In this document: positions 14,024-29,238 of the stretch, piece by piece
Position numbering within the stretch: position 1 is the stretch's first letter
How the letters are laid out: each line of letters begins with the position of its first letter
From: Minisyncoccota bacterium
GTDB taxonomy: Bacteria > Patescibacteriota > Minisyncoccia > Phycocordibacterales > JAGLPS01
Length of the DNA stretch: 64,000 bases
Reading direction: 5' to 3'
Assembly: GCA_023137185.1 (NCBI GenBank)
Contig: JAGLPS010000006.1
Location: 683-64,682, forward strand
Notes under the pieces: generated by a model
What the model saw: only the letters and a program-made list of their open reading frames with translations
Database searches by the model: none
Told to the model about the DNA's origin: nothing
Position numbers and translations under genes: made by a program

Positions 14024-14107
14024 ATCAGGGATTTAAACATTAGTTCATAAATATCAATTTATTAGAAACTTTAAGCTATGTTGAAAAGTTATTTTCGTCC
14101 GTGAATT

Positions 14108-14137
14108 GTCTGCCGAGCCCCTGCGGGGCTCGGCAGA
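14108..14137. repeat. GC hairpin tctgccgagcccc-tgc-ggggctcggcaga (copy 2)
   Basis: identical to 12671-12700. Confidence 0.6.
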
Positions 14138-14175
14138 CAATTCACAACACACAAAGGCCTCGCCTTTGTATTCTT

Positions 14176-15562: not shown

Positions 15563-15570
15563 AAACTTAA

Positions 15571-15665
15571 TTCTACACCACTTCCCCGCCTACGCGCACA
15601 CAAGTCTAAATTTTAGGGAATTAAGACAAATTATCGAGAAATTATCGAGGTTCAACCTCGATAAA
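15571..15665 (-). promoter_or_regulatory. Duplicated ~95-nt upstream region (copy 1) with -10-like gtggtgTAGAAT directly before a leaderless ATG, plus palindrome ttatcgag-N4-ttatcgaggttcaacctcgataa
   Basis: Near-identical to 16939-17045, which precedes the NYN gene. Palindromic core atcgaggtt-c-aacctcgat is also present at 47.8 kb and 54.6 kb. Confidence 0.5.
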
Positions 15666-16931: not shown

Positions 16932-16938
16932 AATGCTA

Positions 16939-17045
16939 TTCTACACCACTTCCCCGCCTACGCGCGCACAAGTCTAAATTTTAGGGAATTAAGGCAAATT
17001 ATCGAGAAATTATCGAGGTTCAACCTCGATAATTTCTCGATAAAC
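16939..17045 (-). promoter_or_regulatory. Duplicated upstream region (copy 2) containing a perfect 45-nt palindrome ttatcgagaaattatcgaggtt-c-aacctcgataatttctcgataa (16999-17043) and the leaderless promoter of the NYN gene
   Basis: direct sequence comparison with 15571-15665. Confidence 0.5.
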
Positions 17046-17050
17046 ACAAA

Positions 17051-17089
17051 CACCAAACACCTCAAATACACCATTTGAGGTGTTTGGTG
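17051..17089 (-). terminator. 17-bp perfect hairpin caccaaacacctcaaat-acacc-atttgaggtgtttggtg, terminator of the 17107 gene
   Basis: followed by U-rich tract in minus orientation. Confidence 0.55.
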
Positions 17090-17106
17090 CAAAAGTGGTA
17101 ATTCTG

Positions 17107-17682
17107 CTAGATTTTGGTGTAAAAAACCGATTTCCCGGTGTTCCCGACCTGTTTTATGCGATTTTCTGCTTCAAGAATATCTAAATATCTTACCGCTGTG
17201 GCGCTTGATATTCTAAGTAGTTTTTGAATATCTTTGTTTGTTATTTGAGGCTTTGTCTCAAAAAGAGCTACAACCTTATCTAATTTTTTCCGTCTTCGTT
17301 CTTGAATTTTTGCCCGCGCTTTCACAAGTAATCTTTGAACAATATTCGGATCGGTTTTGTAGATAATTTGTGTTTGAACTTGAGATTGCTGTGGTTGTGG
17401 CTCTGATATTGGCATAGGTTCTTCTGAAACAGAAGAATGTGTGGGAGCAGGTTCTGACACAGTTTGTTCAACCACTTCTTCATCCGCAAGGACTGCTGTT
17501 TCTTGTGGTTGTTCTATTGGTGCTGTGGTTTGAACTTCAGAAATGGTCTCTGGTTGAATTTTCTCAGTTGCTTCTTCAATAGGGTCTGCCGACGGCTCAA
17601 CAATAGGTTCAGTAGCCACAGGTTCTACTGGTACAGTAGTTTCTTCTACTATGTCTTGAGTTTTATTTTCTTCTGGTGGCAT
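17107..17682 (-). CDS. Protein with disordered acidic Pro/Glu-rich N-terminus and C-terminal winged HTH
   Basis: 191 aa; C-terminal KDIQKLLRISSATAVRYLDILEAENRIKQVG is HTH-like; 11 nt after the hsdS stop. Confidence 0.45.
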   Translation of the reverse strand: MPPEENKTQDIVEETTVPVEPVATEPIVEPSADPIEEATEKIQPETISEVQTTAPIEQPQETAVLADEEVVEQTVSEPAPTHSSVSEEPMPISEPQPQQSQVQTQIIYKTDPNIVQRLLVKARAKIQERRRKKLDKVVALFETKPQITNKDIQKLLRISSATAVRYLDILEAENRIKQVGNTGKSVFYTKI

Positions 17683-17693
17683 ATTGTCTTGAA

Positions 17694-19136
17694 CTACAAT
17701 TTTAATTGATTATTTGATGAATTACGATTGTTTTTTTCAATCTCCTCCTCAACTCTCCTTTTCGCTTCTTCTAAAAGCTCTTTGCTTTCTTTTCTCAATT
17801 TATGGCTTTCCTGTATTTTTTCTGCAATCTGTTTTTGAATTTTTGGGTTGATAAGAGGAATTTTAAATTTTTCAAAATCTGATGGTTTTAGATGGGCGAT
17901 TATTGCTCCGCCTGATAATTTTTCAACTTGCGTTTTAGAAATAATGGAATTGAAAATCAGAGACAGGCATTCTTTTTCAAAAGTTTGATATTTGTCTTTT
18001 AGGCTCAATCTTAAAAACGCTCCGCTCAAAATTAGATCAAATTCTTCTTTGACGACATAACTTAAACCGATTGTTCCATCTTTGGTAAATAAAATATCGT
18101 CCCGTTTAGGCTGATAATCATTTTTTAATTCCTGATAAAGCCCTTTTGAAATTTTCTTGCCTGTGTCTTTAACTCCGTTTATTGAAAAATCCGAAACTCT
18201 CCCAAATGACATTCCGTCCTGCTGATATGTTTCGCTCCCAACCTCAACGCCTTTTTTCCAATTCACTATATTTTTAACAAAATTCCAGCCGTTTTTATAA
18301 TTTTCAATCTTTTTAATTATCTCATCATATTTCGGCTGAAAATATTCCGCGTCAAATCTCCCCGCCTCGTCTGTTTCTTTTTTTGTAGTTTGAAATGATA
18401 AAATATGCTCTAGCTTGTAATCCCCTCCTTTGCCAAGGCTTCGGCGGGCAGGCAACAAATCAACCTCTTTCAAAAGCGTTTCTTCGGCTTGTTTGTAAAG
18501 TTGTTTTGATTGGGTTTGTTTTTCGTAAGCGAACTTTACGATTTTTTCTATTTGGAGTTGGAAAGATTGAGGAAGGATTGGGATTTTTAAATCAGTAAAA
18601 TTAAAAACGTTTAATTTGGGTTGTGCGTTACCGCTTATTCTTCTTAATATTTGATTTTGACCATACTTTGAATTTAAAAAAGTTAAAATAAAATATTTTA
18701 TTTCTTCATTGTAATTCTCTAGTTTTATACCGATATTATTTTCAGAGACATTTGCTCTTTTCATTTCATTATCTATTCTTGCAATCAAGCCAATTGTATT
18801 TCCAACTTTTGAGACAACTAAATCGCCTTGTTTTAATTCAGAATTTTTAATCTTATTATTACTATCCTCAGAAATACAAACCATATTTTCTTTTTCTAAA
18901 AAAAATCTTTGTCTTATGTCTTGAACTCTTACAAAATAAACACCTTCATTAAGATATTCTTCACTTTTTAAAGTTGACCCAAAGGGACCTGATACAACCT
19001 CATTTTTTGATAAATAAAAATGTTTTAAATTGTCCAATTTCTCTTCAATCTCCAAATATTCCAGTTTAAAAAACTCCGCGTCAAACCTGCGCGCTTCTTG
19101 AACATCTGATTTTTTGATAATTGAGATTTGTGGCAT
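17694..19136 (-). CDS. hsdS: Type I restriction-modification specificity subunit
   Basis: 480 aa; two target-recognition domains separated by conserved coiled-coil repeats; N-terminus MPQISIIKKSDVQEARRFDAEFF. Confidence 0.85.
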   Translation of the reverse strand: MPQISIIKKSDVQEARRFDAEFFKLEYLEIEEKLDNLKHFYLSKNEVVSGPFGSTLKSEEYLNEGVYFVRVQDIRQRFFLEKENMVCISEDSNNKIKNSELKQGDLVVSKVGNTIGLIARIDNEMKRANVSENNIGIKLENYNEEIKYFILTFLNSKYGQNQILRRISGNAQPKLNVFNFTDLKIPILPQSFQLQIEKIVKFAYEKQTQSKQLYKQAEETLLKEVDLLPARRSLGKGGDYKLEHILSFQTTKKETDEAGRFDAEYFQPKYDEIIKKIENYKNGWNFVKNIVNWKKGVEVGSETYQQDGMSFGRVSDFSINGVKDTGKKISKGLYQELKNDYQPKRDDILFTKDGTIGLSYVVKEEFDLILSGAFLRLSLKDKYQTFEKECLSLIFNSIISKTQVEKLSGGAIIAHLKPSDFEKFKIPLINPKIQKQIAEKIQESHKLRKESKELLEEAKRRVEEEIEKNNRNSSNNQLKL

Positions 19137-19142
19137 ATTATT

Positions 19143-20948
19143 TTAACTTTCCAATTTATCTTTTATGAAATTAAAAATTTCCTTAAAATTTTTCTTTGTT
19201 GTGTTTAACAAATTAAAACTTTCGCCCTTAATGAAAAGTTCTTGAATGGCTGTATTAAATTTACTTTTTTCATATTCCACGCTATCAGGAAAAGATAATT
19301 TTTGAATCCTCAATCTCTCCGCAGAAGTATGAAATAGTTTTTCAGTTTGAAAATTGCTAAAATTTTCTTTTATTTCTTTCAGGGTAAATATGTGCTTTTT
19401 TAATTCTTCACTTACATTATTTAAATAATTTTTTTTCGCTCTTTTTCCCGGAATGTCATCATCAAAAATTGCAATAAATTTTTTGTTATTTGCTAAATAT
19501 TCGCGAAAAATATTCTCGTGCTTATCAACTCCTGCCCCAGGATAAAAGTTAAAATCATAATCATCATTAAAAAATTGCTCTTTTACCCATTTAAACGTGT
19601 AGTAATCAAATTTACCTTCAGTGAAAACAATGTTTTTAGTCTGCTCAAAAGGATTTTTAATATATTCTAAACAATCTAAAATTGGCTGAAAGTGTGTTTC
19701 CTCGTTTTCATTGTTTGCAACAAAATTCCTATATAGTTCTGCGTCAATATTCTGGCTGTAGTTTTCCATATCAATCACTCCGCTACTGTCTTCTTTTCTG
19801 CCTTTGTCTTTCACAACAAATGAAGTAAGTAAAAATTTTGGATTTAATAAATAGTGGCTATGTGTTGAATAAATTATTTTTGATCTGTCAATTAACTTTT
19901 CAAAAAGTTTTAGCAATTTTTGCTGGGATCCTTGATGTAAATTACTTGCTGGTTCATCAAATAAAAATAAATATTCTCCTTTTTCAGTTTGTCTTGCCTT
20001 TCTAAATTCAGTAAAAAGCAAAAAGCCAAAATACCATCTAAAACCCAAACTCATTTCATTGATGTAAAAACTGCTTGCCCCCTCTTTAATTTTAAATTGC
20101 AAAAAATAACCATTGGTATCTTTATTATGTTCAATTTCAATATTCTTTCTTGTTGAATTAGAAAAAATTTGTTGCCAAGACTGCACTATGACAGAATTTA
20201 ATTTTTGACTCATTTCATTTAATATTTGTTTTGCGGATTCTTCATCATCCTCGCTTGTACTTTTTAATCTATCTAGAATATGTTTATTTAAATTATAAGA
20301 CTCATCAATGCTACTTAAAATGTCTTGTAAAATTTTTCTATATTCTTTTTGAGTGTCCGTTTTTGTTAATTCCGAATTTTCAATATTTTCAAGATAAATT
20401 TTGTCAGGAAAATCAAATAGAAAATTTTCAAAATACAAAATTTTTGGAATTAACTTTTCTTTAATTTCTGTTGTTAACGCATCCCAATGTTCGTTGTATC
20501 TATCGTACATATCAACAAAATTTTTTGCTTGTTTTGTCTTTACTTTTAAATCAATGTTCCACAAAACACTAAAACCTCTATCAATAAATTTAGAATCTTT
20601 GAATTTATATTTTTTAGTAATTGATATTTCATCTATTTCTTTTTCTAATTCTAATTTTTTCTTTAGTAAAAAAGATTCAATAAATTTTTTGTCATCATTA
20701 CCCAATTTTAAAGTTGCTTTAATTGTTACTACATCGTTAAAATTTGCTTTTTTATTCTTATGTATCATCTCGTGCTCGCTGCCCTCAATTTTATTTTGAA
20801 ATAAATCTATTGCTTCTAAAATTGTAGTTTTTCCGCTCTCGTTTAACCCAACTAATGGAAAAATTTCTCCATTCGGTTGTTTTGTTAAATCTAAAACAAG
20901 ACTATTTATCCCTTTAAAATTTTTTATTTTGAATTTAATGTATTTCAT
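19143..20948 (-). CDS. OLD-family nuclease: N-terminal ABC ATPase fused to C-terminal Toprim domain (Gabija GajA / class-1 OLD-like)
   Basis: 601 aa; Walker A GLNESGKTT, Walker B LFLFDEPASNLH, H-loop YSTHSH; Toprim glutamate (VFTEGKFD) and DxD (IFDDD); stop is 6 nt before the hsdS ATG. Confidence 0.75.
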   Translation of the reverse strand: MKYIKFKIKNFKGINSLVLDLTKQPNGEIFPLVGLNESGKTTILEAIDLFQNKIEGSEHEMIHKNKKANFNDVVTIKATLKLGNDDKKFIESFLLKKKLELEKEIDEISITKKYKFKDSKFIDRGFSVLWNIDLKVKTKQAKNFVDMYDRYNEHWDALTTEIKEKLIPKILYFENFLFDFPDKIYLENIENSELTKTDTQKEYRKILQDILSSIDESYNLNKHILDRLKSTSEDDEESAKQILNEMSQKLNSVIVQSWQQIFSNSTRKNIEIEHNKDTNGYFLQFKIKEGASSFYINEMSLGFRWYFGFLLFTEFRKARQTEKGEYLFLFDEPASNLHQGSQQKLLKLFEKLIDRSKIIYSTHSHYLLNPKFLLTSFVVKDKGRKEDSSGVIDMENYSQNIDAELYRNFVANNENEETHFQPILDCLEYIKNPFEQTKNIVFTEGKFDYYTFKWVKEQFFNDDYDFNFYPGAGVDKHENIFREYLANNKKFIAIFDDDIPGKRAKKNYLNNVSEELKKHIFTLKEIKENFSNFQTEKLFHTSAERLRIQKLSFPDSVEYEKSKFNTAIQELFIKGESFNLLNTTKKNFKEIFNFIKDKLES

Positions 20949-20970
20949 GAGTGATTAAATTAAAATTAAA

Positions 20971-21096
20971 TTATCTCCAAAACCCCAACCCATTCTCCCT
21001 CCCCCACTTCTCAAAAGCAAAAGCGATCTCGTCTAAGTCGTCAAACTTGCGCGCTTCTTGAACATCTGATTTTTTTATAATTGAAATTTGAGGCAT
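20971..21096 (-). other. Junction repeat 2 with chimeric 41-aa mini-ORF MPQISIIKKSDVQEARKFDDLDEIAFAFEKWGRENGLGFWR (hsdS N-terminus fused to hsdM C-terminus)
   Basis: Start 2 nt after the stop of the upstream cassette gene. Its stop lies 22 nt before the OLD ATG, reproducing the native hsdM-stop/hsdS-start spacing. Confidence 0.6.
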
Positions 21097-21098
21097 AG

Positions 21099-22025
21099 TT
21101 AATTTTTAATTTTAGAAACCTCTGATGGCTCAATTTCTTTCCCTTCTGGTTTAGGGTTAAATTCTATACTTTTATAATTTTTACATTGAAATAATTGATA
21201 TTTAATAAGTTCATCAAACTTCAAATTTCCTTTTTTTAGATCTGATGGATGAATTACAATAATTAATTTTTCGCAAATCGCTTTATATTTAGATGTATCT
21301 ATAAAAGTATCTATAATTTGCTTAATAATAATTTCTCTGGTTAGCTCAGGATTTCTTCCATGTTGTGCATTTATTAGAGGAATCACAATAGATTCATCTT
21401 TACTTGAATCAGAGGAAAGAAATTCCCATAATCCATTTAAGCTAAGCATAAAATCATCTATAGAGGATTTGACTCTATCATTTTTTTGTTTCTTTGAATT
21501 TACAAGTAAATAAAACCTTTTTATTTTATTTTTAAACAATTTCTTTTTTTGCTTTTCTATTTCAATAACCTTTCCTATCTCAAAAGGAGTATCCCTAATA
21601 TTTATTTTTTCCTTTATTTTATCGTCTAGTTGTTTTGAATCATTATTAAAATAATCTTTAATTAATTTATTCTGAATACTTTTTGCTTCTTTAACATTTC
21701 CATTCAGGGATGTATCAAAATAATTATTAAACGGAACTATTTGTGAACCTTTAACATTAAAAGCATCTCCAATTTTCAACTCAATGCAAGAGTCTCTATC
21801 TCTAATTTTTATAGAATGAGATGATTTCGGATAATTTTTAAAAATTGCATATAAAAAACTTGAACCTAAAATGCACCAAAATATTAAAGGAAGATTTAAT
21901 CTTTCACTTACAGAAGAGAAAAAATATGAAATAATTTCTGTGATTAGCCACAAAAAACCAAGACAAGAAAGAAAGTCTTTAATAGCAAAACGCCAATTTT
22001 GTATCCATCTTTTTATTAAGATCAT
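21099..22025 (-). CDS. Two-TM membrane protein with ~230-aa cytoplasmic C-terminal domain of unknown family (candidate effector/sensor of the TIR cassette)
   Basis: 308 aa; two N-terminal hydrophobic helices; start overlaps the TIR gene stop (ATGA). Confidence 0.45.
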   Translation of the reverse strand: MILIKRWIQNWRFAIKDFLSCLGFLWLITEIISYFFSSVSERLNLPLIFWCILGSSFLYAIFKNYPKSSHSIKIRDRDSCIELKIGDAFNVKGSQIVPFNNYFDTSLNGNVKEAKSIQNKLIKDYFNNDSKQLDDKIKEKINIRDTPFEIGKVIEIEKQKKKLFKNKIKRFYLLVNSKKQKNDRVKSSIDDFMLSLNGLWEFLSSDSSKDESIVIPLINAQHGRNPELTREIIIKQIIDTFIDTSKYKAICEKLIIVIHPSDLKKGNLKFDELIKYQLFQCKNYKSIEFNPKPEGKEIEPSEVSKIKN

Positions 22026-22528
22026 AATCCTAGTTGCTGGTAAACTGTATCTTTGTAATGATAAGCTCCTGTTTTATCATTATTTCTAAAAGAAGAATCT
22101 GAATCAAACCAATCATCAATAGCATGTTCAATTATCTTTTGTTTAAAATTCACATGAACAGCTAATTCGTCTTTTAGTATTGTTGGACATAAATCAGAAT
22201 CCATACTTGTTTTCCCATTTAAATTTACTACAATAATCGGAATATTTCTTTTTATTGCCTGCTCAATTTCCCAACGAACAAATTTATAAAGATGTTTCGT
22301 ATTATCTCCCACAAGAAGAATAAAAACTTTCGTGTTTCTTAATCGTTCAGCAAGTTTTGCCTTAATAGTTTCTTCTGTAGAATCTGACATAAGATTATTT
22401 AAATCATGAGCATCATAAAAATTAAATGAAGTATTATCACTTTTTTTCCAAGCTTGCATTAAACGATAATAATGAATGTCATTATCTGCATCAAAAGCAA
22501 CATATGTTTTGTTTGTATAAATTGTCAT
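22022..22528 (-). CDS. TIR-like domain protein (DUF1863/ThsB-like)
   Basis: 168 aa; YVAFDADNDIHYY N-terminal strand and KVFILLVGDNTKH..WEIEQAIKRNIPIIVV pattern of bacterial TIR-like (ThsB) domains. Confidence 0.6.
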   Translation of the reverse strand: MTIYTNKTYVAFDADNDIHYYRLMQAWKKSDNTSFNFYDAHDLNNLMSDSTEETIKAKLAERLRNTKVFILLVGDNTKHLYKFVRWEIEQAIKRNIPIIVVNLNGKTSMDSDLCPTILKDELAVHVNFKQKIIEHAIDDWFDSDSSFRNNDKTGAYHYKDTVYQQLGL

Positions 22529-22567
22529 AAAAATATTTTAGATTAATAAATTAATTTTTCCAAAAAT

Positions 22568-22879
22568 TCAACTCTTCCTTTTCACAAGAGTTTTTCCTGT
22601 TTTACCTCTTCGTAATTGGACTTTCGGCATATTCTTTTTTGCGTGATCCAAAGCCTCATCATTAAAACCTTTTGTTGAAACAATTACATCTGCATGGTTT
22701 TGTTGATACGCTTTTTGTAATTGAAATTTCGTAAGAGGCTTTTTGTAATCTTTCACTTCAACTTTATCTCCTCCCTTTTTAATATCTGGATTATTTGGTC
22801 CAGCTTTTCTTGTGCCATCAATTCCTTTGGCGACTTTTTTCTCTGCTCGTTTTCCTTTTTTTGCATTGTTATCTGTCAT
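22568..22879 (-). CDS. Small basic protein with possible minimal PD-(D/E)xK motif
   Basis: 103 aa; NNPDIKKGGDKVEVKDYKKP could be PD...ExK; weak. Confidence 0.3.
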   Translation of the reverse strand: MTDNNAKKGKRAEKKVAKGIDGTRKAGPNNPDIKKGGDKVEVKDYKKPLTKFQLQKAYQQNHADVIVSTKGFNDEALDHAKKNMPKVQLRRGKTGKTLVKRKS

Positions 22880-22907
22880 ATTATTTTAAATTAAAAAATT
22901 AATAAAT

Positions 22908-23039
22908 TTATTTCCAAAAACTCAACCCATTCTCCTTCCCCCACTTCTCAAAAGCAAAAGCGATCTCGTCTAAGTCGTCAAACTTGCGTGCTTCATTGAA
23001 TATCTGTTTTTTTATAATTGAAATTTGCGGCATAGCCAT
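22908..23039 (-). other. Junction repeat 1 with chimeric 43-aa mini-ORF MAMPQISIIKKQIFNEARKFDDLDEIAFAFEKWGKENGLSFWK
   Basis: Nucleotide-level copy of the hsdM 3' end joined to the hsdS 5' start; start 1 nt after the stop of the 379-aa gene. Confidence 0.6.
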
Positions 23040-23040
23040 T

Positions 23041-24180
23041 TTAATTTATATGATAATGCTTAATTGCATTATTTCGAATAACTAAAAGATAACTTTCTGT
23101 TTTCCAGCATTGTTGATTATCACATATCTCACTAACATATTCTTTTTCATTAAAAATAACGAAGTTTATCTCTTTTAAAAATGTATTTCCACAAACAAAA
23201 TTCTTAATAAAATCTTTATTTTTTATATTTCCAATTAAATATAAAGTTTCCAAATTTGATTTTGTAAATTCCTCTATATATCTTTTGTAAGGAGCACTAC
23301 CTTGCTCATAAATTTTGTCTGTTTTCCCGATTATAATCATTCCAAATTTACAATAATTACCTAAAAATCTATTATCGGTTTCTTCATTGATTTTTCGCCT
23401 TGAATAATTATTTAAAAATTTTATTAAATTTGTAACCTCTGTAATAATTAAATCGTCTTTTCTATTATTAAAAACTTTTTCTCCTAAAAAAATCATCTCT
23501 TGAATAAAGACAGGAAAAAATAATCCTTTTTTATCAATACTTTGATATTTAACAAATAAATCATCAACTATTTTTTCTTCTATTTTTGGATGTAAAAAAT
23601 CTTCAATAAATTCTTTTACGACATCTTCTTTCTCCTCTTCAAATATTTTCTTGCCAACAAATAAATCTATAGATTCTTTTTGTTTTTCACTTATATATCT
23701 TTTTGCTTTAATTAATAAATTTTCTGCTATAAAAATCATAGTTGCATTAACAAAGTTTTTATTTTCATTATCATTTTTCCTTATTCTAACAATCATTTTT
23801 CCATTCTCTAAAAAAGATTTTGGTATTTCACTATCACTTACCCATTCCACTTTTAGTTTTATTGGCATAAAACCTTTAATTTCTCTTTTTAAAAAACCGT
23901 TAACAAAAGAATTAGTTCTACTTTGAAAATCATGCTGGATATATTTTTTCCTGATTACGGGAACTGTTTTAAAAATTTTTGATAATGCTTTATAAAATAA
24001 TGCAATAAATTTTTCAAATCTATCGGGATAAAATACAGCACAAACAAAAACTATGAAAAATAAAAACCAACCGCCGTATGCGAACATACAGTCAAAAAAA
24101 ACTTTCGCGCTTTCCCCGTCATTAAAATTTATATTAATTGGCATATTTATTTTAAATATACTAATAGTTTTTTTATACAC
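23041..24180 (-). CDS. Hypothetical protein with one N-terminal TM helix (cassette 1)
   Basis: 379 aa, Lys/Glu/Phe-rich, no recognisable motif. Confidence 0.4.
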   Translation of the reverse strand: MYKKTISIFKINMPININFNDGESAKVFFDCMFAYGGWFLFFIVFVCAVFYPDRFEKFIALFYKALSKIFKTVPVIRKKYIQHDFQSRTNSFVNGFLKREIKGFMPIKLKVEWVSDSEIPKSFLENGKMIVRIRKNDNENKNFVNATMIFIAENLLIKAKRYISEKQKESIDLFVGKKIFEEEKEDVVKEFIEDFLHPKIEEKIVDDLFVKYQSIDKKGLFFPVFIQEMIFLGEKVFNNRKDDLIITEVTNLIKFLNNYSRRKINEETDNRFLGNYCKFGMIIIGKTDKIYEQGSAPYKRYIEEFTKSNLETLYLIGNIKNKDFIKNFVCGNTFLKEINFVIFNEKEYVSEICDNQQCWKTESYLLVIRNNAIKHYHIN

Positions 24181-24380
24181 TCAGGCGAATCGCACACAAA
24201 TTTTATATCTTCTGATTTTTTAAATAAAGAATGCAAGTTTTCAACATTAATTATATTTTTGCAAAATTCACATTTTTTTCTTCCTTGTACAAAATCATCT
24301 AAAATGCCAAGCCTTTTCAGCATTCCTTTTAAATCATCATCGTATACTAGATTGATTTTCTTTTTTTCTTTTTTGAACAT
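24147..24380 (-). CDS. Small protein with C-terminal CxxC...C..C zinc-ribbon-like motif
   Basis: 77 aa; CEFCKN...CDSPEC. Confidence 0.3.
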   Translation of the reverse strand: MFKKEKKKINLVYDDDLKGMLKRLGILDDFVQGRKKCEFCKNIINVENLHSLFKKSEDIKFVCDSPECIKKLLVYLK

Positions 24381-24404
24381 ATTAATTTATTTATTTTCAA
24401 AAAA

Positions 24405-25070
24405 TTATTTTTCATCTCTCTTTTCAATAGCTTCTTTGGAATTTTCTGGTAAATCGTTATAAAAACTGTCAATTTCTTTTTGTTCTGTAATCATTTTTTC
24501 TGCTATAAAATTTAGCAATTCAAAAAGTTTCAAGACTTTTTCTGTCTCTTCTTCAAGATTTATTTCTCCTGGGTGAACCGCACCATTTCCTGTTATTCTA
24601 AGTATATCCAAAGATTTTTGAATTTGAGGATTCAACCCTTTTTTAACTAACTCCTTTATGTCATCATTTATATTTTTTCCTTTTTCACCAAGCTGTTTGC
24701 AAAGTTTTTGTAACGCTAATCTTAAAAGTGCAGCAGATGCTCGCGGAGAATCACTAAAAATATTTGCCGCTTCTAAATAATCCTTTTTAATGTCACCAGA
24801 CAAATCATCGTTAGGCAGATCAACAATCATTTTTTTAGGATATATAATTTCATTTTCAAGCCAAATTATTTTTTCGCTACAATGTTTGCATCGTGACATT
24901 TTCCATTCACTTGATAAATTCTCGTTAAACTTGCTAACACCGTAAAAATCATCTCCATAAACATGATGACCTGTAATATGTCCCCATTGTTGCTCTGCAA
25001 ATACTCCACAGTGCGGACAATGGAATTCGCCGTAATTCAATATTGGTGGATAATGTTTTTCTTTTGTCAT
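24405..25070 (-). CDS. Zinc-finger + DUF4145 domain protein
   Basis: 221 aa; CPHCG...CKHCSEK N-terminal Zn finger; C-terminal LRLALQKL...ILRITGNGAVH pattern of DUF4145; starts 21 nt after the hsdM stop. Confidence 0.55.
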   Translation of the reverse strand: MTKEKHYPPILNYGEFHCPHCGVFAEQQWGHITGHHVYGDDFYGVSKFNENLSSEWKMSRCKHCSEKIIWLENEIIYPKKMIVDLPNDDLSGDIKKDYLEAANIFSDSPRASAALLRLALQKLCKQLGEKGKNINDDIKELVKKGLNPQIQKSLDILRITGNGAVHPGEINLEEETEKVLKLFELLNFIAEKMITEQKEIDSFYNDLPENSKEAIEKRDEK

Positions 25071-25091
25071 ATTTTTATTCTTAAATTTATA

Positions 25092-27119
25092 TTATCTCCA
25101 AAAATTCAACCCATTCTCCTTCCCCCATTTCTCAAAAGCAAAAGCAATATCGTCTAAATCGTGTTTTTGTTTTAGGTGGTTATGCTCATCAAGTTTTCTT
25201 TCTCCATTTTTATCAACTTCGTAAATCTCATCCCCCGAATTATCTTTGCCTGAATTTTCACTCACCGCCATAAATATTTTATAATCATCAACCTTTGGAT
25301 TGATTTTTTCATCCCATTTCTGCACAAACAAGACAGAAGTTTTTGTTCCCGTATGCGGTTTGAAAGTATTGCCGTCAAGCCCGACCACCGCTAAAAGGCG
25401 CGCCCGCTCCATTATAAAATCCCTGATCCTTTCATCGCTCGTATTATTAAACCTTCCCTGCGGCAAGACAATCGCCATTCTTCCGCCCGGTTTTAGAAAA
25501 TCCAGATTCCTTTCAATAAACAAAATGTCTCTTGAAATATTATCAATCTGCTTGTCTTTTTTATAAGCCACTTCATAGCAAGCCGTCATCCTTTTATCTT
25601 TAATATCTCCGGCAAAAGGCGGATTCGCCATTACCAAATCAAAATTAAATTCTTTTGGATTTTTTCTGTCTTTCGCCAAATCCAGCAATCTGTAAAAACC
25701 CTCTAAATAAGTTCTGCTCCATTCCCGGTCTTTCAGTTTTTCTTCCCACCTTGTGTAATCAAGCGAATTCAAATGCAAGACATTTGTCCTGCCGTCGCCC
25801 GCAATCATATTTAAAGTCCGCGCGACACGAACCGATTTTTCGTCAAAATCAATCCCGAAAACTTTTAAGACATATTCCTTTTGCTCTTTGGTCGGTTTCT
25901 GATTTGAAAAATTGCTGAATTGCGCCTTGCCGTTGCCTTTTAATTTTTCCCAAACATTAAAAAGCGTATGTACTGTAAATCCGCAAGACCCGCAAGCCGT
26001 ATCTATCATATACTCGCTTGGCTTTGGATTAAGCATATAAACGCACATATCAATTACATTTCTTGGCGTAAAATACTGTCCTTTTTCTCCTTTGGCGGAT
26101 TTGTTGACCAGATATTCAAACGCTTCGTCAATCACCTGCAGATTGGAATTGAAGAGTTTTACATTCTGCAAAAATCCGACGCAGATTTGCAGATGGTTTT
26201 CATCCGTAATGCGAAGCGGTTCGCCTTTTTCAAAAATTCCCGGCCATTTTTCTTTGGCTTTCTGAAAAAGATTATTGATGACTTCTTTCGTATGATGCGC
26301 ATCGCCGCGACTTCTGAATTCCAGTTGCGTTAATCCTTTTATTTTAACTTTAGCCAAAATTTCTTTATCAGATAAATCAGGATTTTCTTCTCTTAGTTCT
26401 TTAAATTTCCACTCTATTTTTTGCCTATCTTCCGAGCTTTCCATTTCATCATAAAGCTTGATAAAAATCAGTTTAAAAACTTCTTCAAAAACATCCACGC
26501 CGGCATTTGCCAGAACTTCGTCCTCCATTTCCTGAATTAAAGTTTTCAAAGATTTTCTTTCTTCCTGAAGCTTGTCTTTTTGCATCAGTTCCAAATAAGT
26601 AAAAATTTCGTTTTTTACATCGTCTATTGTTTCATTCGCTTTTGGAATATCAGAAAGCGGTTCAAAATAATTAGGATCCAATCGCTCGTAATAATTTATT
26701 TCTGTTCCGTTCGTCCAAACCGCCAAAGGTGCGCCTGTCGCGTTTGTGTAGCTTTTCAACTGGTCTTTCCCATCTTTCGCTTTGTGCTTTTTAATTTCCA
26801 AAACACAATAAACGCTCGTTTTATCTTTTTTATTTAAAATAATAATATCCGCTAGCTTCTTTTCCCTGCCAAAAGAAATAGAAAATTCAACCCTTATCAA
26901 ATCAACGGGATAATTATATTCATTAAGAAGTTTATCAAGCGTTAATTGCCTCACAATCTCCTCCGGCTTTGCTTGAATGTCTTTTTCTCTTTTCAAACAT
27001 TTAATAAAATGCTTTCCTTTTTTCTCAAAAATGCTTTTCTCAACTCTGTCTATGCTTTCCGCGGAAAAAGTCGTCAAATCATATTTCCCGCCTGATTTTA
27101 TAAGTTGCGATAGATTCAT
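25092..27119 (-). CDS. hsdM: Type I restriction-modification DNA methyltransferase subunit
   Basis: 675 aa; N6-adenine MTase motifs DTACGSCGF (motif I) and NPPF (motif IV); HsdM N-terminal domain. Confidence 0.9.
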   Translation of the reverse strand: MNLSQLIKSGGKYDLTTFSAESIDRVEKSIFEKKGKHFIKCLKREKDIQAKPEEIVRQLTLDKLLNEYNYPVDLIRVEFSISFGREKKLADIIILNKKDKTSVYCVLEIKKHKAKDGKDQLKSYTNATGAPLAVWTNGTEINYYERLDPNYFEPLSDIPKANETIDDVKNEIFTYLELMQKDKLQEERKSLKTLIQEMEDEVLANAGVDVFEEVFKLIFIKLYDEMESSEDRQKIEWKFKELREENPDLSDKEILAKVKIKGLTQLEFRSRGDAHHTKEVINNLFQKAKEKWPGIFEKGEPLRITDENHLQICVGFLQNVKLFNSNLQVIDEAFEYLVNKSAKGEKGQYFTPRNVIDMCVYMLNPKPSEYMIDTACGSCGFTVHTLFNVWEKLKGNGKAQFSNFSNQKPTKEQKEYVLKVFGIDFDEKSVRVARTLNMIAGDGRTNVLHLNSLDYTRWEEKLKDREWSRTYLEGFYRLLDLAKDRKNPKEFNFDLVMANPPFAGDIKDKRMTACYEVAYKKDKQIDNISRDILFIERNLDFLKPGGRMAIVLPQGRFNNTSDERIRDFIMERARLLAVVGLDGNTFKPHTGTKTSVLFVQKWDEKINPKVDDYKIFMAVSENSGKDNSGDEIYEVDKNGERKLDEHNHLKQKHDLDDIAFAFEKWGKENGLNFWR

Positions 27120-27200
27120 AATTTTTTGTTAAAAGTTTCGTAATAAATTTATTTTGATTGATACTTTTGTTTCTTTGAAATTTGCTATATTTTTATTTAA

Positions 27201-27710
27201 TTAAATCATCCCTCCAGAGGCGGGCAGGCAGGCGAAATACCGAGAGCGTCCGCGATTTTTTAACTGTGTCAATGGTGGGGTTTGGCGTTGCGCGTCGCCG
27301 ACCGCTTTCATAAACTCATCGTAGTTTTTGGCAATGCGTTTGCGATTTATTGTATACCCTTGAACAAGATATTCTTTTAATATCTTGTTCGCCCACTTCC
27401 TAAATTCAACAGCTTGAGCGGAATTTGTTCTATATCCTACGGATAAAATAACATCAAGAGAATAAAAAGAAACCGGCTTATCTGAATTTGCAATGTGCAT
27501 TTTTTGCACATTGCTTTTTTCACTTATTTCTCCAGATTTAATGATCGTTCTAATATGCTTTGTGATCACAGATCGTTCTACACTAAAAACTTCAGCAATC
27601 TGTGCCTGTGTCGCCCATATATTTTCATGCTCAAAATCGCCTCGAAGTTCAATCGCTCCGTTTTTTGCTTGATAAATAATTATATTGTTTGCTGTTTTTT
27701 TCTTTTTCAT
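27201..27710 (-). CDS. RhuM-family (virulence protein RhuM / DNA-binding) protein
   Basis: 169 aa; IYQAKNGAIELRGDFEHENIWATQAQIAEVFSVERSVITKHIR matches the RhuM family commonly found beside hsdM. Confidence 0.7.
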   Translation of the reverse strand: MKKKKTANNIIIYQAKNGAIELRGDFEHENIWATQAQIAEVFSVERSVITKHIRTIIKSGEISEKSNVQKMHIANSDKPVSFYSLDVILSVGYRTNSAQAVEFRKWANKILKEYLVQGYTINRKRIAKNYDEFMKAVGDAQRQTPPLTQLKNRGRSRYFACLPASGGMI

Positions 27711-27889
27711 AATTTATATTTCGCTTTAAACATCCCTCCAAAGGCGGGCAGGCAGGCGAAACGCCGAGCGCGTCCGCAATTTTTTAACTGTGTCAATAGT
27801 GGGGTTTGGCGTTGCGCGTCGCCGACTACTTCGGCGTCTTTGCGCATAATGTTTTGGATATTTTTGATGATGTTTTGTATTTCGGACAT
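27707..27889 (-). pseudogene. Duplicated 3' fragment of the RhuM gene (~100 nt) fused to unrelated N-terminal sequence
   Basis: 27722-27820 is ~90% identical to 27208-27305; encodes ...VGDAQRQTPLLTQLKNCGRARRFACLPAFGGM. Confidence 0.5.
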
Positions 27890-27890
27890 A

Positions 27891-28985
27891 TTATTTCCCT
27901 CTTTGAGCTTCTGTTATCGCGCGATCAACCATAAATCGCACGGCTTCATTCATATGAAGATTTTCAATCTTTATAGATGGATGTTTTTTCTGAAAAACCC
28001 GATATATTTCATCCGCAAATGCCTGACCAACCATAGGAACATTTTCATAATCCAACGCAACAACCTTGAACTTTTCAAGACCGGAAAGAACACGCCGCGC
28101 TTGCGAGCGCGATATATGCACTCCCCCCGCAATATATAGACGTACATACACTTCAGTCTTATCAAAACCGTACTCACCACCAACACCCGTGTCAGTATAT
28201 TTACGAAAAATATCATTGAGATGATGCCTGTCGTCTATGTTGATACGAAATGTAACTTTTGTCCCCTGTTTTTGACCTTTAACTTTTTTTACAAATATAT
28301 CGTCTATTTTATTGTTTGCAATAAATTGGTACCCGTAACTATCGAGAATAAATTCATCACCAACTTTTGACGTAAAGAAAATACCTTCACCGGAATGAAG
28401 TTTTGGCTCAGTTGTCATCTTGCCCTTGAGAAGGTCTTGTATTGCTTCCATTTCCGATTTAAGATGTCGTTTTTTCATAATATTACGATATACTCCTACA
28501 CCAAAATCATCGACGGCAAACGACAACTCATCGTCATTTAATGAAACCGAAACATTAATTTTCTTTGAACCGGAGTGTTCAATTGCATTGTTCAGCATCT
28601 CAGAAAAAGCGTATGTAAAAATACTTTTTATATTTTCCGAAAATCGACTAAATGGAAGAAATCTGTGTTCTATGTCATCAAGAACGATATGTTCTTCAAG
28701 ACCTTTGTTAACAAGTTGTCTGGTATATATATTTGGAGTAACATCCGGATGCTCTTGAATGTATTCCACCGTCGCATACCTCGCCGAACGCGTTGAACCA
28801 AGTTTTATAAGCTTTTTTTCTTCAACAAGATTAGATATGAGCTTGTTCGCATATTGCCGAGAAACTCCAAAAGAACCCGCGATATTACGGCTTTTAATTA
28901 TCCCTTTTTCCTGCGCTATTTTAAGAATGTGTTCCGTGTTTATCATATGTAAACTGATTGTAAACAATCGGTTTACAATTGTCAA
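27891..28985 (-). CDS. wHTH + GHKL-type ATPase (HATPase_c) + STAS-like (DUF4325) protein
   Basis: 364 aa; N-terminal HTH, N-box EMLNNAIEHSG, C-terminal STAS-like region. Confidence 0.5.
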   Translation of the reverse strand: MTIVNRLFTISLHMINTEHILKIAQEKGIIKSRNIAGSFGVSRQYANKLISNLVEEKKLIKLGSTRSARYATVEYIQEHPDVTPNIYTRQLVNKGLEEHIVLDDIEHRFLPFSRFSENIKSIFTYAFSEMLNNAIEHSGSKKINVSVSLNDDELSFAVDDFGVGVYRNIMKKRHLKSEMEAIQDLLKGKMTTEPKLHSGEGIFFTSKVGDEFILDSYGYQFIANNKIDDIFVKKVKGQKQGTKVTFRINIDDRHHLNDIFRKYTDTGVGGEYGFDKTEVYVRLYIAGGVHISRSQARRVLSGLEKFKVVALDYENVPMVGQAFADEIYRVFQKKHPSIKIENLHMNEAVRFMVDRAITEAQRGK

Positions 28986-29005: not shown

Positions 29006-29194
29006 CTATGCAGTATACAACTGCCTCTCAATCTCCTCCGGCTTCGCCTGAATATCGCTCTTTCTTTTCAGGCATTTAACAAAAAACTTTTTGTTTTTCT
29101 CAAAAATCTTTTTTTCAACCCTGTCTATACTTTCCTCGGAAAAAGTCGTCAAATCATATTTCCCGCCTGATTTTATAAGTTGTGATAAATTCAT
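29006..29194 (-). pseudogene. Duplicated 5' fragment of hsdM (first 57 codons, ~235-nt repeat including the upstream region)
   Basis: MNLSQLIKSGGKYDLTTFSEESIDRVEKKIFEKNKKFFVKCLKRKSDIQAKPEEIERQL vs the hsdM N-terminus; 29000-29233 approx equals 26925-27158. Confidence 0.7.
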
Positions 29195-29238
29195 AATTTT
29201 TTGTTAAAAGTTTCGTAATAAATTTATATTGCCTATAA

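Follow-up and report, generated by a model that had tools for sequence, protein, structure and literature searches.

Genes with a role in defence or abortive infection are established residents of hsd operons. PrrC is encoded in EcoprrI, and Ronin consists of hsdMS together with RonA, without an hsdR gene. AAA_13, Fic, RhuM, AIPR, DUF4145 and OLD-like proteins are families typical of hsd operons. A restriction–modification (RM) operon from a Minisyncoccota bacterium extends this theme. It lies in contig JAGLPS010000006.1 of GenBank assembly GCA_023137185.1, in a stretch of 64,000 nucleotides (positions 683 to 64,682), which is termed here the window. An hsdM-like gene and hsdS are separated in this operon by a series of gene cassettes, and the boundaries between cassettes carry short stubs of these genes, in two cases with the start of hsdS fused to the end of hsdM. 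The locus is similar to PrrC and Ronin in that an hsd operon houses defence genes that would be expressed together with it, and it shares with Ronin the lack of hsdR. PrrC and Ronin differ in that they are single embedded genes with no boundary repeats, whereas the locus described here stacks several unrelated systems with stubs of the flanking genes between them.

Other arrays show partial resemblance. In the orphan toxin-immunity arrays downstream of rhs and cdiA, every stacked module has kept a short piece of the main gene's conserved coding region. Such pieces bear witness to modules gained one after another by recombination, and they offer homology at which modules can be switched later. 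The likeness lies in the stacked modules, each of which keeps a flanking-gene stub. A single gene is the source of the stub in the rhs/cdiA arrays, where each module is an alternative C-terminal end for it, whereas in the window two different flanking genes have contributed stubs, fused tail to head, and the cassette genes are autonomous. In the tandem lpl cluster of Staphylococcus aureus, the evolutionary unit spans a 3′ end, the intergenic region and the next 5′ end (Tsuru and Kobayashi 2008, PMC2568036). There too, modules are shuffled through recombination at conserved segments, and module boundaries differ from open reading frame (ORF) limits (PMC2568036), but the lpl genes are tandem paralogues that recombine at a central conserved region, and the cluster has neither unrelated cassettes nor chimeric stubs.

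A defence hotspot embedded in an RM operon is therefore of a known kind, but serial stacking marked by chimeric stubs of the flanking genes was not found in the literature searched. A sequence-only reading of the window had suggested that the architecture might be undescribed, and no published description of it was encountered in the literature on hsd-embedded cassettes, remnants and repeats. The gain and loss of systems by chromosomal defence islands outside mobile elements is poorly understood (Sci Adv 2026, PMC12829572). This locus family keeps sequence scars of single acquisition events. They suggest a simple mechanism in which two conserved partner genes provide homology and a microhomology join completes the event, and on this pattern ordinary recombination, with no dedicated integrase, might suffice to enlarge a defence island. 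The scars also offer a signature for the mining of new defence genes, i.e. an S head with an M tail within 150 nt, or an orphan M tail; several cassettes have no known family, e.g. the 379-aa, 77-aa and 103-aa ORFs of the window.

The junction repeats

The hsdM-like gene and hsdS are both on the minus strand and, as first read from the sequence, are about 6 kb apart; the ORF listing gives the same gene coordinates and a gap of 5,955 nt. Features of the operon and its surroundings are listed in Table 1.

Table 1. Features of the RM operon and adjoining DNA, in the order in which the minus strand is read (positions are those of the window).
Feature	Position	Strand	Remarks
Truncated duplicate of hsdM upstream region and codons 1-59	29019-29231	minus	87.8% identical to 26944-27156 (213 nt)
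HTH-HATPase-DUF4325 gene	27891-28985		between the hsdM-head copies
60-aa fragment	27707-27889		resembles N-terminus of a different methylase; between the hsdM-head copies
Truncated RhuM gene	27201-27710		between the hsdM-head copies
hsdM-like gene (RM subunit)	25092-27119	minus	675 aa; N-terminal PD-(D/E)xK (HSDR_N_2) and N6-adenine methyltransferase
Junction J1, native hsdM tail	25071-25160	minus	last 22 codons and stop, with 21-nt spacer; reference copy of the M half
Cassette 1, gene 1: PD-T7-4/DUF4145	24405-25070	minus	221 aa; PADLOC PD-T7-4 1.8e-87; Pfam DUF4145 1.1e-17
Cassette 1, gene 2: ORF with Cys pairs	24147-24380	minus	77 aa; no family match (Pfam, PADLOC, NCBIfam)
Cassette 1, gene 3	23041-24180	minus	379 aa; hydrophobic N-terminal segment; no family match
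Junction J2, hsdS head fused to hsdM tail	22901-23043	minus	mini-ORF 22908-23039 (43 aa); 28-nt spacer to next ATG
Cassette 2, ORF	22568-22879	minus	103 aa; weakly Mrr_cat-like (Pfam E 0.0037, below gathering score)
Eroded hsdM-tail stub (GTTGAATTTTTGGA...)	~22549-22580	minus	overlaps stop of the 103-aa ORF; between that ORF and thsB
Cassette 3, Thoeris pair	21099-22528	minus	thsB (TIR) 22022-22528; thsA (transmembrane and Macro) 21099-22025
Junction J3, hsdS head fused to hsdM tail	20964-21109	minus	mini-ORF 20971-21096 (41 aa); 22-nt spacer to next ATG
Cassette 4, OLD-family ABC-ATPase and Toprim nuclease	19143-20948	minus	601 aa; Pfam AAA_15 9e-23
hsdS	17694-19136	minus	480 aa; two target-recognition domains
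HTH protein gene	17107-17682	minus	191 aa; downstream of hsdS
Terminator-like hairpin	17050-17090	minus	19-bp stem; 3′ of the 191-aa HTH gene

Each of the two internal junctions, J2 and J3, consists of hsdS codons 1-19 (57 nt; the S head) in frame with the last 22 codons of hsdM and its stop (69 nt; the M tail). That the repeats are chimeras of the hsdM 3′ end and the hsdS 5′ end had been read from the sequence, and alignment bears this out. Two repeat families overlap in the junctions. In the first, the 94-nt copies at 20964-21057 and 22901-22994 share 93% identity, and the hsdM end at 25085-25178 is 74% identical over the whole length. The second comprises the hsdS start at 19079-19137, with copies at 21039-21097 (93%) and 22976-23034 (75%). 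Profile hidden Markov models of the hsdM tail and the hsdS head, built from 31 related loci, match the junctions within the 6.25-kb region with E values of 1e-8 to 1e-18, and chance is thereby excluded. The predicted product of the J3 mini-ORF is MPQISIIKKSDVQEARKFD|DLDEIAFAFEKWGRENGLGFWR and that of J2 is MAMPQISIIKKQIFNEARKFD|DLDEIAFAFEKWGKENGLSFWK, where the bar separates the S part from the M part.

The join can be read as TTTGAC|GCG on the S side and CAC|GACTTA on the M side, with a microhomology of about 3 nt (ACG). It is within the F-D / D-L-D codons, which agrees with the crossover point proposed earlier at the F-D codons. Spacings also resemble the native arrangement, as had been pointed out: M-type stops precede the next ATG by 21, 28 and 22 nt along the array, and the last stop of a cassette precedes the start of the S-type ORF by 1 nt (7 nt to the ATGCC start), 2 nt and 6 nt.

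J2 and J3 are mutually closest in both halves (92.6% and 92.8% identity), and are nearer to each other than to the resident hsdM tail or hsdS head. This implies either that one junction was copied, or that two units entered via the same linker. Compared with J3 and hsdS, J2 has one T missing after the KK codons and one extra T 12 nt later. This compensated frameshift changes SDVQ to QIFN and restores the reading frame.

The sequence-only reading had counted three cassettes. An eroded M-tail stub in the second of these (nhmmer E 0.012; local alignment score 39, compared with a maximum of 30 from shuffled sequences) can be taken, with moderate confidence, as a further cassette boundary. It falls between the 103-aa ORF and thsB, and the number of cassettes would therefore be four rather than three. 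Another candidate M-tail stub, spotted by eye at 24381-24404 in the gap between the PD-T7-4 gene and the 77-aa ORF, was not significant by profile or by shuffles and is rejected.

The window is part of a metagenome-assembled genome (MAG) built from short reads, and related loci with other cassettes are present in sibling samples (L002 below; loci are numbered with the letter L). This raises the question of whether an assembler might have chained strains of the type M-X-S, M-Y-S and M-Z-S into one contig. Such a chain would need a shared k-mer to make the join of S head to M tail, but the microhomology is only 3-6 nt, and the whole junction is shorter than one read. In addition, the same array, 100% identical, is found in independent European Nucleotide Archive (ENA) assemblies (contigs of 10.1 kb and 5.5 kb), so that identical arrays have been assembled independently in at least three samples, and a 2.97-Mb contig, L131, has an array of the same architecture. 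The independent identical assemblies, together with the lack of a long k-mer shared by the two halves of the junction, show that the array is not an assembly artefact; the chance that it is one is negligible.

One short contig departs from the array. L045 (ENA ERZ23498458, 2,466 nt) is 100% identical to positions 21376-19182 of the window, i.e. J3 and the OLD gene, and departs 40 nt before the OLD stop codon into unrelated sequence that has a minus-strand ORF. Either the array varies in the population or the contig is chimeric.

The spacer between hsdM and hsdS in related loci

A scan of species-representative genomes with hsdM yielded 38 loci. The match is at 66-92% protein identity in 37 of these; in the other, L040, it is limited to a fragment of 95 residues with 33% identity. 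A metagenome scan with the hsdM C-terminus added 80 further loci. The hsdM clade, defined by at least 65% identity, extends over several phyla and has 63 loci after dereplication; 13 loci with about 50% identity form an outgroup.

An insert of at least 371 nt separates hsdM and hsdS in 57 of the 63 clade loci, and the two genes are adjacent in six. They are adjacent in all 13 outgroup loci. The spacer between the stop of the first gene and the start of the second is thus shown to be a hotspot for accessory anti-phage genes. The inserted proteins fall into about 40 clusters. These include OLD-like, RhuM, Fic, Schlafen/HATPase_c_4, DUF4145, YhcG, Bro-N and PIN families, as well as AIPR, AAA_13, KwaB-like, a D12 methylase pair, SduA_C, DUF6119 and others. 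The OLD-like family (cluster C0) is the commonest occupant (25 of the 57 occupied loci), and RhuM is found in 11. Irrespective of the cassette family, the last stop lies 1-6 nt ahead of the hsdS ATG in about 50 of the 63 loci.

The loci that are nearest to the window in hsdM (87-92% identity) have a different insert in each case, which points to rapid cassette turnover. The sequence-only reading had looked to relatives for variation, and no single fixed arrangement is found: a few loci are uninterrupted, and others have the same type of junction with different cassettes. Cassettes also appear to be lost. A cassette gene that L024 has in intact form survives as a 5′ relic in L087 and in L095 (none of 1000 shuffles reaches the score). 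As hsdM and hsdS are adjacent in L087, at least one of the 'empty' loci still holds the remains of a lost cassette gene.

The RM and S genes belong to a horizontally mobile clade. The MAGs that carry hsdM loci are labelled as many Patescibacteria lineages, Aenigmatarchaeota, Ignavibacteria, Cloacimonadota and Gammaproteobacteria. Across the MAG labels of L003-L039, which include a mussel symbiont, the RM subunit is 72-92% identical at the protein level. This suggests very wide recent horizontal transfer of the RM module, with the proviso that individual MAGs may be mis-binned. The OLD-like gene shows greater divergence, 22-69% identity between species-representative loci, where the flanking hsdM is at least 72% identical in most.

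Junctions and stubs in other loci

Chimeric junctions or hsdM-tail stubs are present in at least 10 other loci. Chimeric junctions of S head and M tail are found in L001, L002 (three copies), L041, L095 (two copies) and L131; the junction ORFs of L001 and L041 are 49 aa in length. M-tail-only stubs that score above every shuffle occur in L006/L051, L014, L016 and L023, and nhmmer detects others in L001 and L002. An S-head-only stub is found in L131.

Two of these loci deserve comment. L002 and the window stem from one sampling project, yet the cassettes of L002 are entirely different; it has five cassettes, three chimeric junctions and one M-only stub. L131 is part of the 2.97-Mb contig mentioned above, which was assembled from long reads and whose name records 39x depth. 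Its hsdM and hsdS are intact, and the locus is flanked by housekeeping genes of the purF/folC/cvpA and fabA/fabB types. The order is hsdM, a relic with an M stub, HEPN, the S-only stub, Bro-N, a chimeric junction, two genes and hsdS.

The chimeric junctions are of five forms. In form A, 66 nt of S head are joined in frame to about 84 nt of M tail; form B has 57 and 69 nt, and form D 21 and 78 nt, both also in frame. Form C joins about 42 nt of S head to about 63 nt of M tail out of frame and stops after 15 codons, and in form E (27 nt and about 45 nt) the ORF stops after 11 codons. Joins of different forms are at different short microhomologies, i.e. ACG, TAAAC and TAATC. Form B is common to the window and L002, and form D to L095 and L131, and the cassettes differ each time.

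Several stubs resemble the hsdM gene of their own locus. The form D M tail of L095 is 98.7% identical over 79 nt to the divergent hsdM tail of L095 itself, and the stubs of L014 and L016 match the tail variant of their own lineage. Judged from these alignments, independent origins of junctions and stubs are indicated. L131 and L095 share a unit of Bro-N cassette plus S head (88.8% identity over 909 nt), and this is followed by differing M-tail stubs and neighbours. A breakpoint within the junction accounts for this pattern.

The native-like spacing led the sequence-only reading to propose that translation is coupled from hsdM through all cassettes into hsdS. One can ask whether the junction is a selected functional element, either a ribosome relay or a regulatory peptide that mimics the HsdM C-terminus. 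The mini-ORFs of the window are in frame, start 1-2 nt past the upstream stop and end 22-28 nt ahead of the next ATG, as does the native hsdM stop. The compensated frameshift in J2 restores the frame, and forms A, B and D are in frame. Yet forms C and E are frame-broken and end after 15 and 11 codons, and three of five independent forms in frame cannot be distinguished from the one-third expected by chance. In addition, many cassette boundaries have an M-tail stub alone or no stub, and the tails of J2 and J3 show non-synonymous differences. Coupling as a conserved feature is thus not upheld, and a selected role for the junction appears improbable. The mini-ORF peptides are probably by-products; a ribosome relay is possible in the window, but it is not a conserved requirement.

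Minor observations concern other members of the family. A non-coding stretch is shared by L131 (7431-7516) and L095 (7179-7261), with 81% identity over 86 nt. It contains a GC-rich segment and lies inside both arrays, and the L131 copy is within a gap of about 185 nt between the hsdM stop and an M-tail stub. Possible explanations are a terminator, a promoter or a small element moved from array to array. In L132 (Logan SRR24204450, 156-442) hsdM has collapsed by internal deletion to about 63 N-terminal codons plus the C-terminal tail, and this is followed by a Fic cassette and the hsdS head; the breakpoint in the hsdM head is near that of the upstream hsdM fragment of the window (codon 59). In L053 (JGI Ga0307992), the 94 nt directly ahead of the hsdS ATG hold a degenerate S-head-like and M-tail-like stretch that no cassette follows and that a lost cassette could have left as a scar. 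It is marginal, as 16 and 66 of 1000 shuffles reach its scores, and it was not counted among the junctions.

Formation of the array

The reading that we favour, to which we assign a probability of roughly 0.6, is that cassettes stack by recombination between alleles of the operon, by means of one homologous crossover and one microhomology join. Alleles of the same operon with different contents, M-X-S and M-Y-S, would recombine. The homologous crossover would take place in conserved hsdM or in the conserved first ~90 nt of hsdS, and the second would be an illegitimate join at a microhomology that links the S head of one copy to the M tail of the other. This process is named homology-facilitated illegitimate recombination. 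Single-crossover (Campbell-type) integration of a circularized fragment consisting of M tail, Y and S head would give an equivalent product. Each event would add one unit, composed of M tail, genes and S head, and would leave a stub at the boundary. The stub would usually be an M tail, sometimes an S head fused ahead of an M tail and, in a single case (L131), an S head with no M tail. The two conserved genes and the stubs, which are about 130 bp long, would then supply homology for cassette gain, loss and swapping.

The lengths of the stubs are instructive. The DNA of hsdS is conserved for the first ~90 nt alone, ahead of the variable first target-recognition domain (TRD), and the S-head stubs (up to 66 nt) are within that block. 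The hsdM DNA is evenly conserved along its length, and the tail is not more conserved than the remainder; the short M stubs therefore need an explanation other than homology. Longer fragments of S or M would encode partial subunits able to mis-assemble, which might keep the stubs short. The HsdM C-terminus packs against the S coiled coil (PMC11997821), and this makes selection against partial subunits plausible.

Several points weigh against stacking by inter-allele recombination. Full chimeric junctions are rare, with about six loci from two whole-database protein searches; these covered 5.8 billion proteins and used first a mini-ORF query and then a synthetic chimera with the commoner tail variant. 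A scan of a metagenome collection for the exact junction pattern, limited to forms B and C, found none; the exact-pattern scan of a viral collection also produced no match. Homology alone leaves the ceiling of about 84 nt for the M stubs unexplained. No recombination intermediate or population variant was found, the array is identical in three independent assemblies, and L045, the one contig that deviates, is possibly a chimera. The junction forms nest within one another, and A, B and C may represent one ancestral junction altered by central deletions and gene conversion. New units might enter on either the M-proximal or the S-proximal side. Lastly, the OLD-like gene, present in 25 of the 57 occupied loci, may be a functional partner and not a cassette, as with mad3 in the methylation-associated defence system (MADS).

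The main rival is tandem duplication in situ followed by replacement. In this scheme, unequal sister-strand exchange at S-head/M-tail microhomologies duplicates the segment of M tail, cassette and S head, and later homologous exchange with foreign alleles swaps one of the cassette copies. The relationship of J2 and J3, which are closer to each other in both halves than to the resident hsdM tail or hsdS head, would be expected from such a process, as would the 98.7% identity of the L095 junction M tail to its resident tail. However, in no array is a chimeric junction flanked by paralogous cassettes, and neighbouring cassettes are unrelated throughout. The sole tandem of one family with a stub between its members (RhuM-RhuM, in L016) has an M-tail-only stub, and internal replacement would need a homology arm of about 130 bp on one side. 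Duplication in situ is considered unlikely.

Integron arrays provide another comparison. As in integrons, the cassettes are promoterless, have the same orientation and are tightly packed; an element of about 130 bp recurs between them, there is one upstream promoter, and the content is enriched in defence genes. The junction repeat could then be an analogue of attC, with a dedicated recombinase that moves circular cassettes. Integrons are recognized by an adjacent tyrosine-recombinase integrase and by a hairpin attC with a fixed crossover, and neither is seen here: no recombinase family is found among the scanned operon neighbours (13.0-32.7 kb) or among the Pfam-matched called genes of L001, L002 and L131. 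The crossover is at five different positions, M-only and S-only stubs vary in length, and the junction DNA folds no better than shuffled sequences on both strands (z +0.15 to +1.4). Furthermore, the repeat is coding sequence of the two flanking genes. The varied microhomologies, together with the lack of a nearby recombinase and of single-strand structure, argue against a site-specific, integron-like process, which is very improbable; any mobility would be via general recombination. The sequence-only reading had spoken of a recombination-driven plug-in site. The plug-in aspect stands, with about 40 insert families in one slot that is occupied in 57 of 63 loci, but nothing indicates that it is site-specific.

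A broader possibility, which we regard as tentative and less probable than the stacking of cassettes by inter-allele recombination, is that an integrase-free platform exists in which the M tail and S head serve as universal docking arms. Units would be exchanged by general recombination among distant lineages, by which are meant candidate phyla radiation (CPR) bacteria, the MAG labelled Aenigmatarchaeota, Cloacimonadota and Gammaproteobacteria. The linker would then be portable and selectively maintained and would allow arrays to acquire, drop and rearrange cassettes, which would make the platform a RecA-dependent functional analogue of the integron that seeds defence islands within a restriction operon.

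The restriction–modification enzyme

The operon was at first taken for a Type I RM locus. The locus does have the N6-adenine methyltransferase of HsdM type and the two-TRD HsdS of classical Type I systems, but a separate HsdR (SF2 translocase plus nuclease) is not encoded alongside. There is no hsdR in the operon, and no ResIII, helicase or HsdR gene among the scanned neighbours. Among the ORFs of at least 700 aa in the 64-kb window, none is hsdR; these encode RNR, a UvrD/AddA-type helicase, RpoB and RpoC. An hsdR gene may nevertheless lie elsewhere in the genome.

The methylase itself carries a nuclease domain. The hsdM-like protein matches Pfam HSDR_N_2 (4.4e-25, residues 52-159) and N6_Mtase (1e-32), as well as PADLOC MTase_I (8.7e-260), and a D...ExK motif (LADIII...VLEIKK) can be read in the translation. 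An N-terminal PD-(D/E)xK endonuclease fused to the methyltransferase is a hallmark of Type IIB enzymes. The closest relative in the Protein Data Bank (PDB) is RM.BsaXI (5.3e-23), compared with 1e-11 to 1e-13 for Type I HsdM proteins. HsdS matches Pfam Methylase_S (1.6e-15) and PADLOC Specificity_I (1.2e-40). BsaXI is an (RM)2S enzyme with an S subunit of 476 aa (PMC11997821). The likeness to BsaXI and BcgI consists of the PD-(D/E)xK domain fused to a gamma-class N6-adenine methyltransferase, and of a separate two-TRD S subunit of about 480 aa, without a translocase subunit. There are also differences: the RM subunit of BsaXI has 916 aa, with knob and paddle inserts, compared with 675 aa here, and PADLOC places the methylase of the locus among Type I methyltransferases. 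On the basis of domain content the enzyme looks Type IIB-like, a nuclease-methylase fusion plus S with (RM)2S architecture and no hsdR.

Homologues have comparable layouts. One on a Klebsiella plasmid (49% identical) consists of RM and an adjoining S gene, with no hsdR annotated within 6 kb. The Picosynechococcus homologue (54% identical) is one protein of 1,179 aa, which from its length is read as an RM-S fusion.

MADS, encoded by mad1-8, was also considered. The top NCBIfam models are MAD2 for hsdM (7.7e-92) and MAD5 for hsdS (1.3e-44), but the scores, 308.6 bits against a curated cutoff of 720 and 152.8 against 400, are both far below the thresholds. The detection model of the MADS authors makes mad6, mad7 and mad8 mandatory, and no match to MAD6-8 is present among the 24 window proteins scanned with NCBIfam or PADLOC. 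Membership in MADS is rejected on these grounds. A resemblance in gene order is nevertheless apparent: mad3, an AAA family ATPase according to NCBIfam, and mad4 are numbered between the methylase mad2 and the S gene mad5, and the order mad2-mad3/mad4-mad5 resembles the commonest layout of the clade, M-OLD-S. The OLD-like protein of the locus, on the other hand, matches MAD3 weakly. By this analogy the OLD-like occupant may be a fast-evolving working partner, comparable to mad3, rather than a passenger.

Cassette genes and transcription

The proposal that the cassettes carry defence genes is supported by profile matches. PD-T7-4 in cassette 1 is matched full length by PADLOC PDLC04109 (residues 5-220 against model positions 3-208 of 211). 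In cassette 3, the two genes overlap by 4 nt. ThsB matches PADLOC at 7.7e-75 and Pfam ThsB_TIR at 7e-22, and ThsA matches PADLOC at 2.1e-40 and Pfam ThsA_Macro at 3.8e-29. The top PADLOC models are of the ThsA1/ThsB1 class, and the pair appears to be type II Thoeris, a label that, as with the N-terminal transmembrane segments, is read from domains and sequence.

The protein of cassette 4 is OLD/AriA-like, with PADLOC matches to AriA (1.3e-23) and to Old (2.6e-16, over residues 5-537). The catalytic E (FTEGK) and DxD (FDDD) of Toprim can be read in the translation; the Pfam Toprim model gives no match to this protein, and did match its relative in L010. With ATPase and Toprim features both present, it is a predicted OLD-family nuclease. 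By analogy with PrrC and Ronin, the cassettes would act as independent second-line or abortive defences that are co-expressed with the restriction enzyme.

The cassettes have a GC content of about 26%, compared with about 41% for the surrounding genome, and are of foreign origin by this measure. The chromosome around the operon carries rpoB, rpoC, dnaG, eno and hisS, as found in the scan of window ORFs.

A terminator scan of the operon strand finds one strong site only, the hairpin downstream of the 191-aa HTH gene. The minus-strand scan shows no terminator-like sites in the intergenic or junction regions of the array; two weak matches are inside hsdM and inside the 379-aa gene. The transcription unit is likely to end after the HTH gene (17050-17682), and the lone strong hairpin at this position fits a single transcription unit. 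The entire array would then be one transcript, from the hsdM promoter to the terminator past the HTH gene. A promoter scan gave 63 sites, where 50.9 +/- 6.5 are expected, which is too close to expectation to be informative.

Repeats and duplications near the operon

The 5′ end of hsdM is duplicated about 2 kb upstream of the full gene, and three genes or fragments are found between the two hsdM heads (Table 1). The arrangement is the duplicated-homology signature expected of a single-crossover insertion, here at the hsdM 5′ end. In a profile search of 95 loci the window alone was positive, and none of the other 94 has the duplication.

A 107-nt direct repeat (27201-27307 and 27725-27831, 91% identical), which is unusually GC-rich, brackets the truncated RhuM gene. 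It corresponds to the C-terminal coding end of the RhuM fragment and of the upstream 60-aa ORF (...GDAQRQTP.LTQLKN.GR...FACLPA.GGM). Downstream of the operon, a 95-nt direct repeat (15570-15664 and 16938-17032, ~97% identical) flanks genes for NYN and FtsK-gamma proteins. It is associated with a perfect palindrome that has 21-nt arms 1 nt apart (17000-17042; listed as 16999-17043), and a second near-palindrome of 45 nt is found at 14101-14145. The 95-nt repeats and the palindromes may be small mobile or regulatory repeats.

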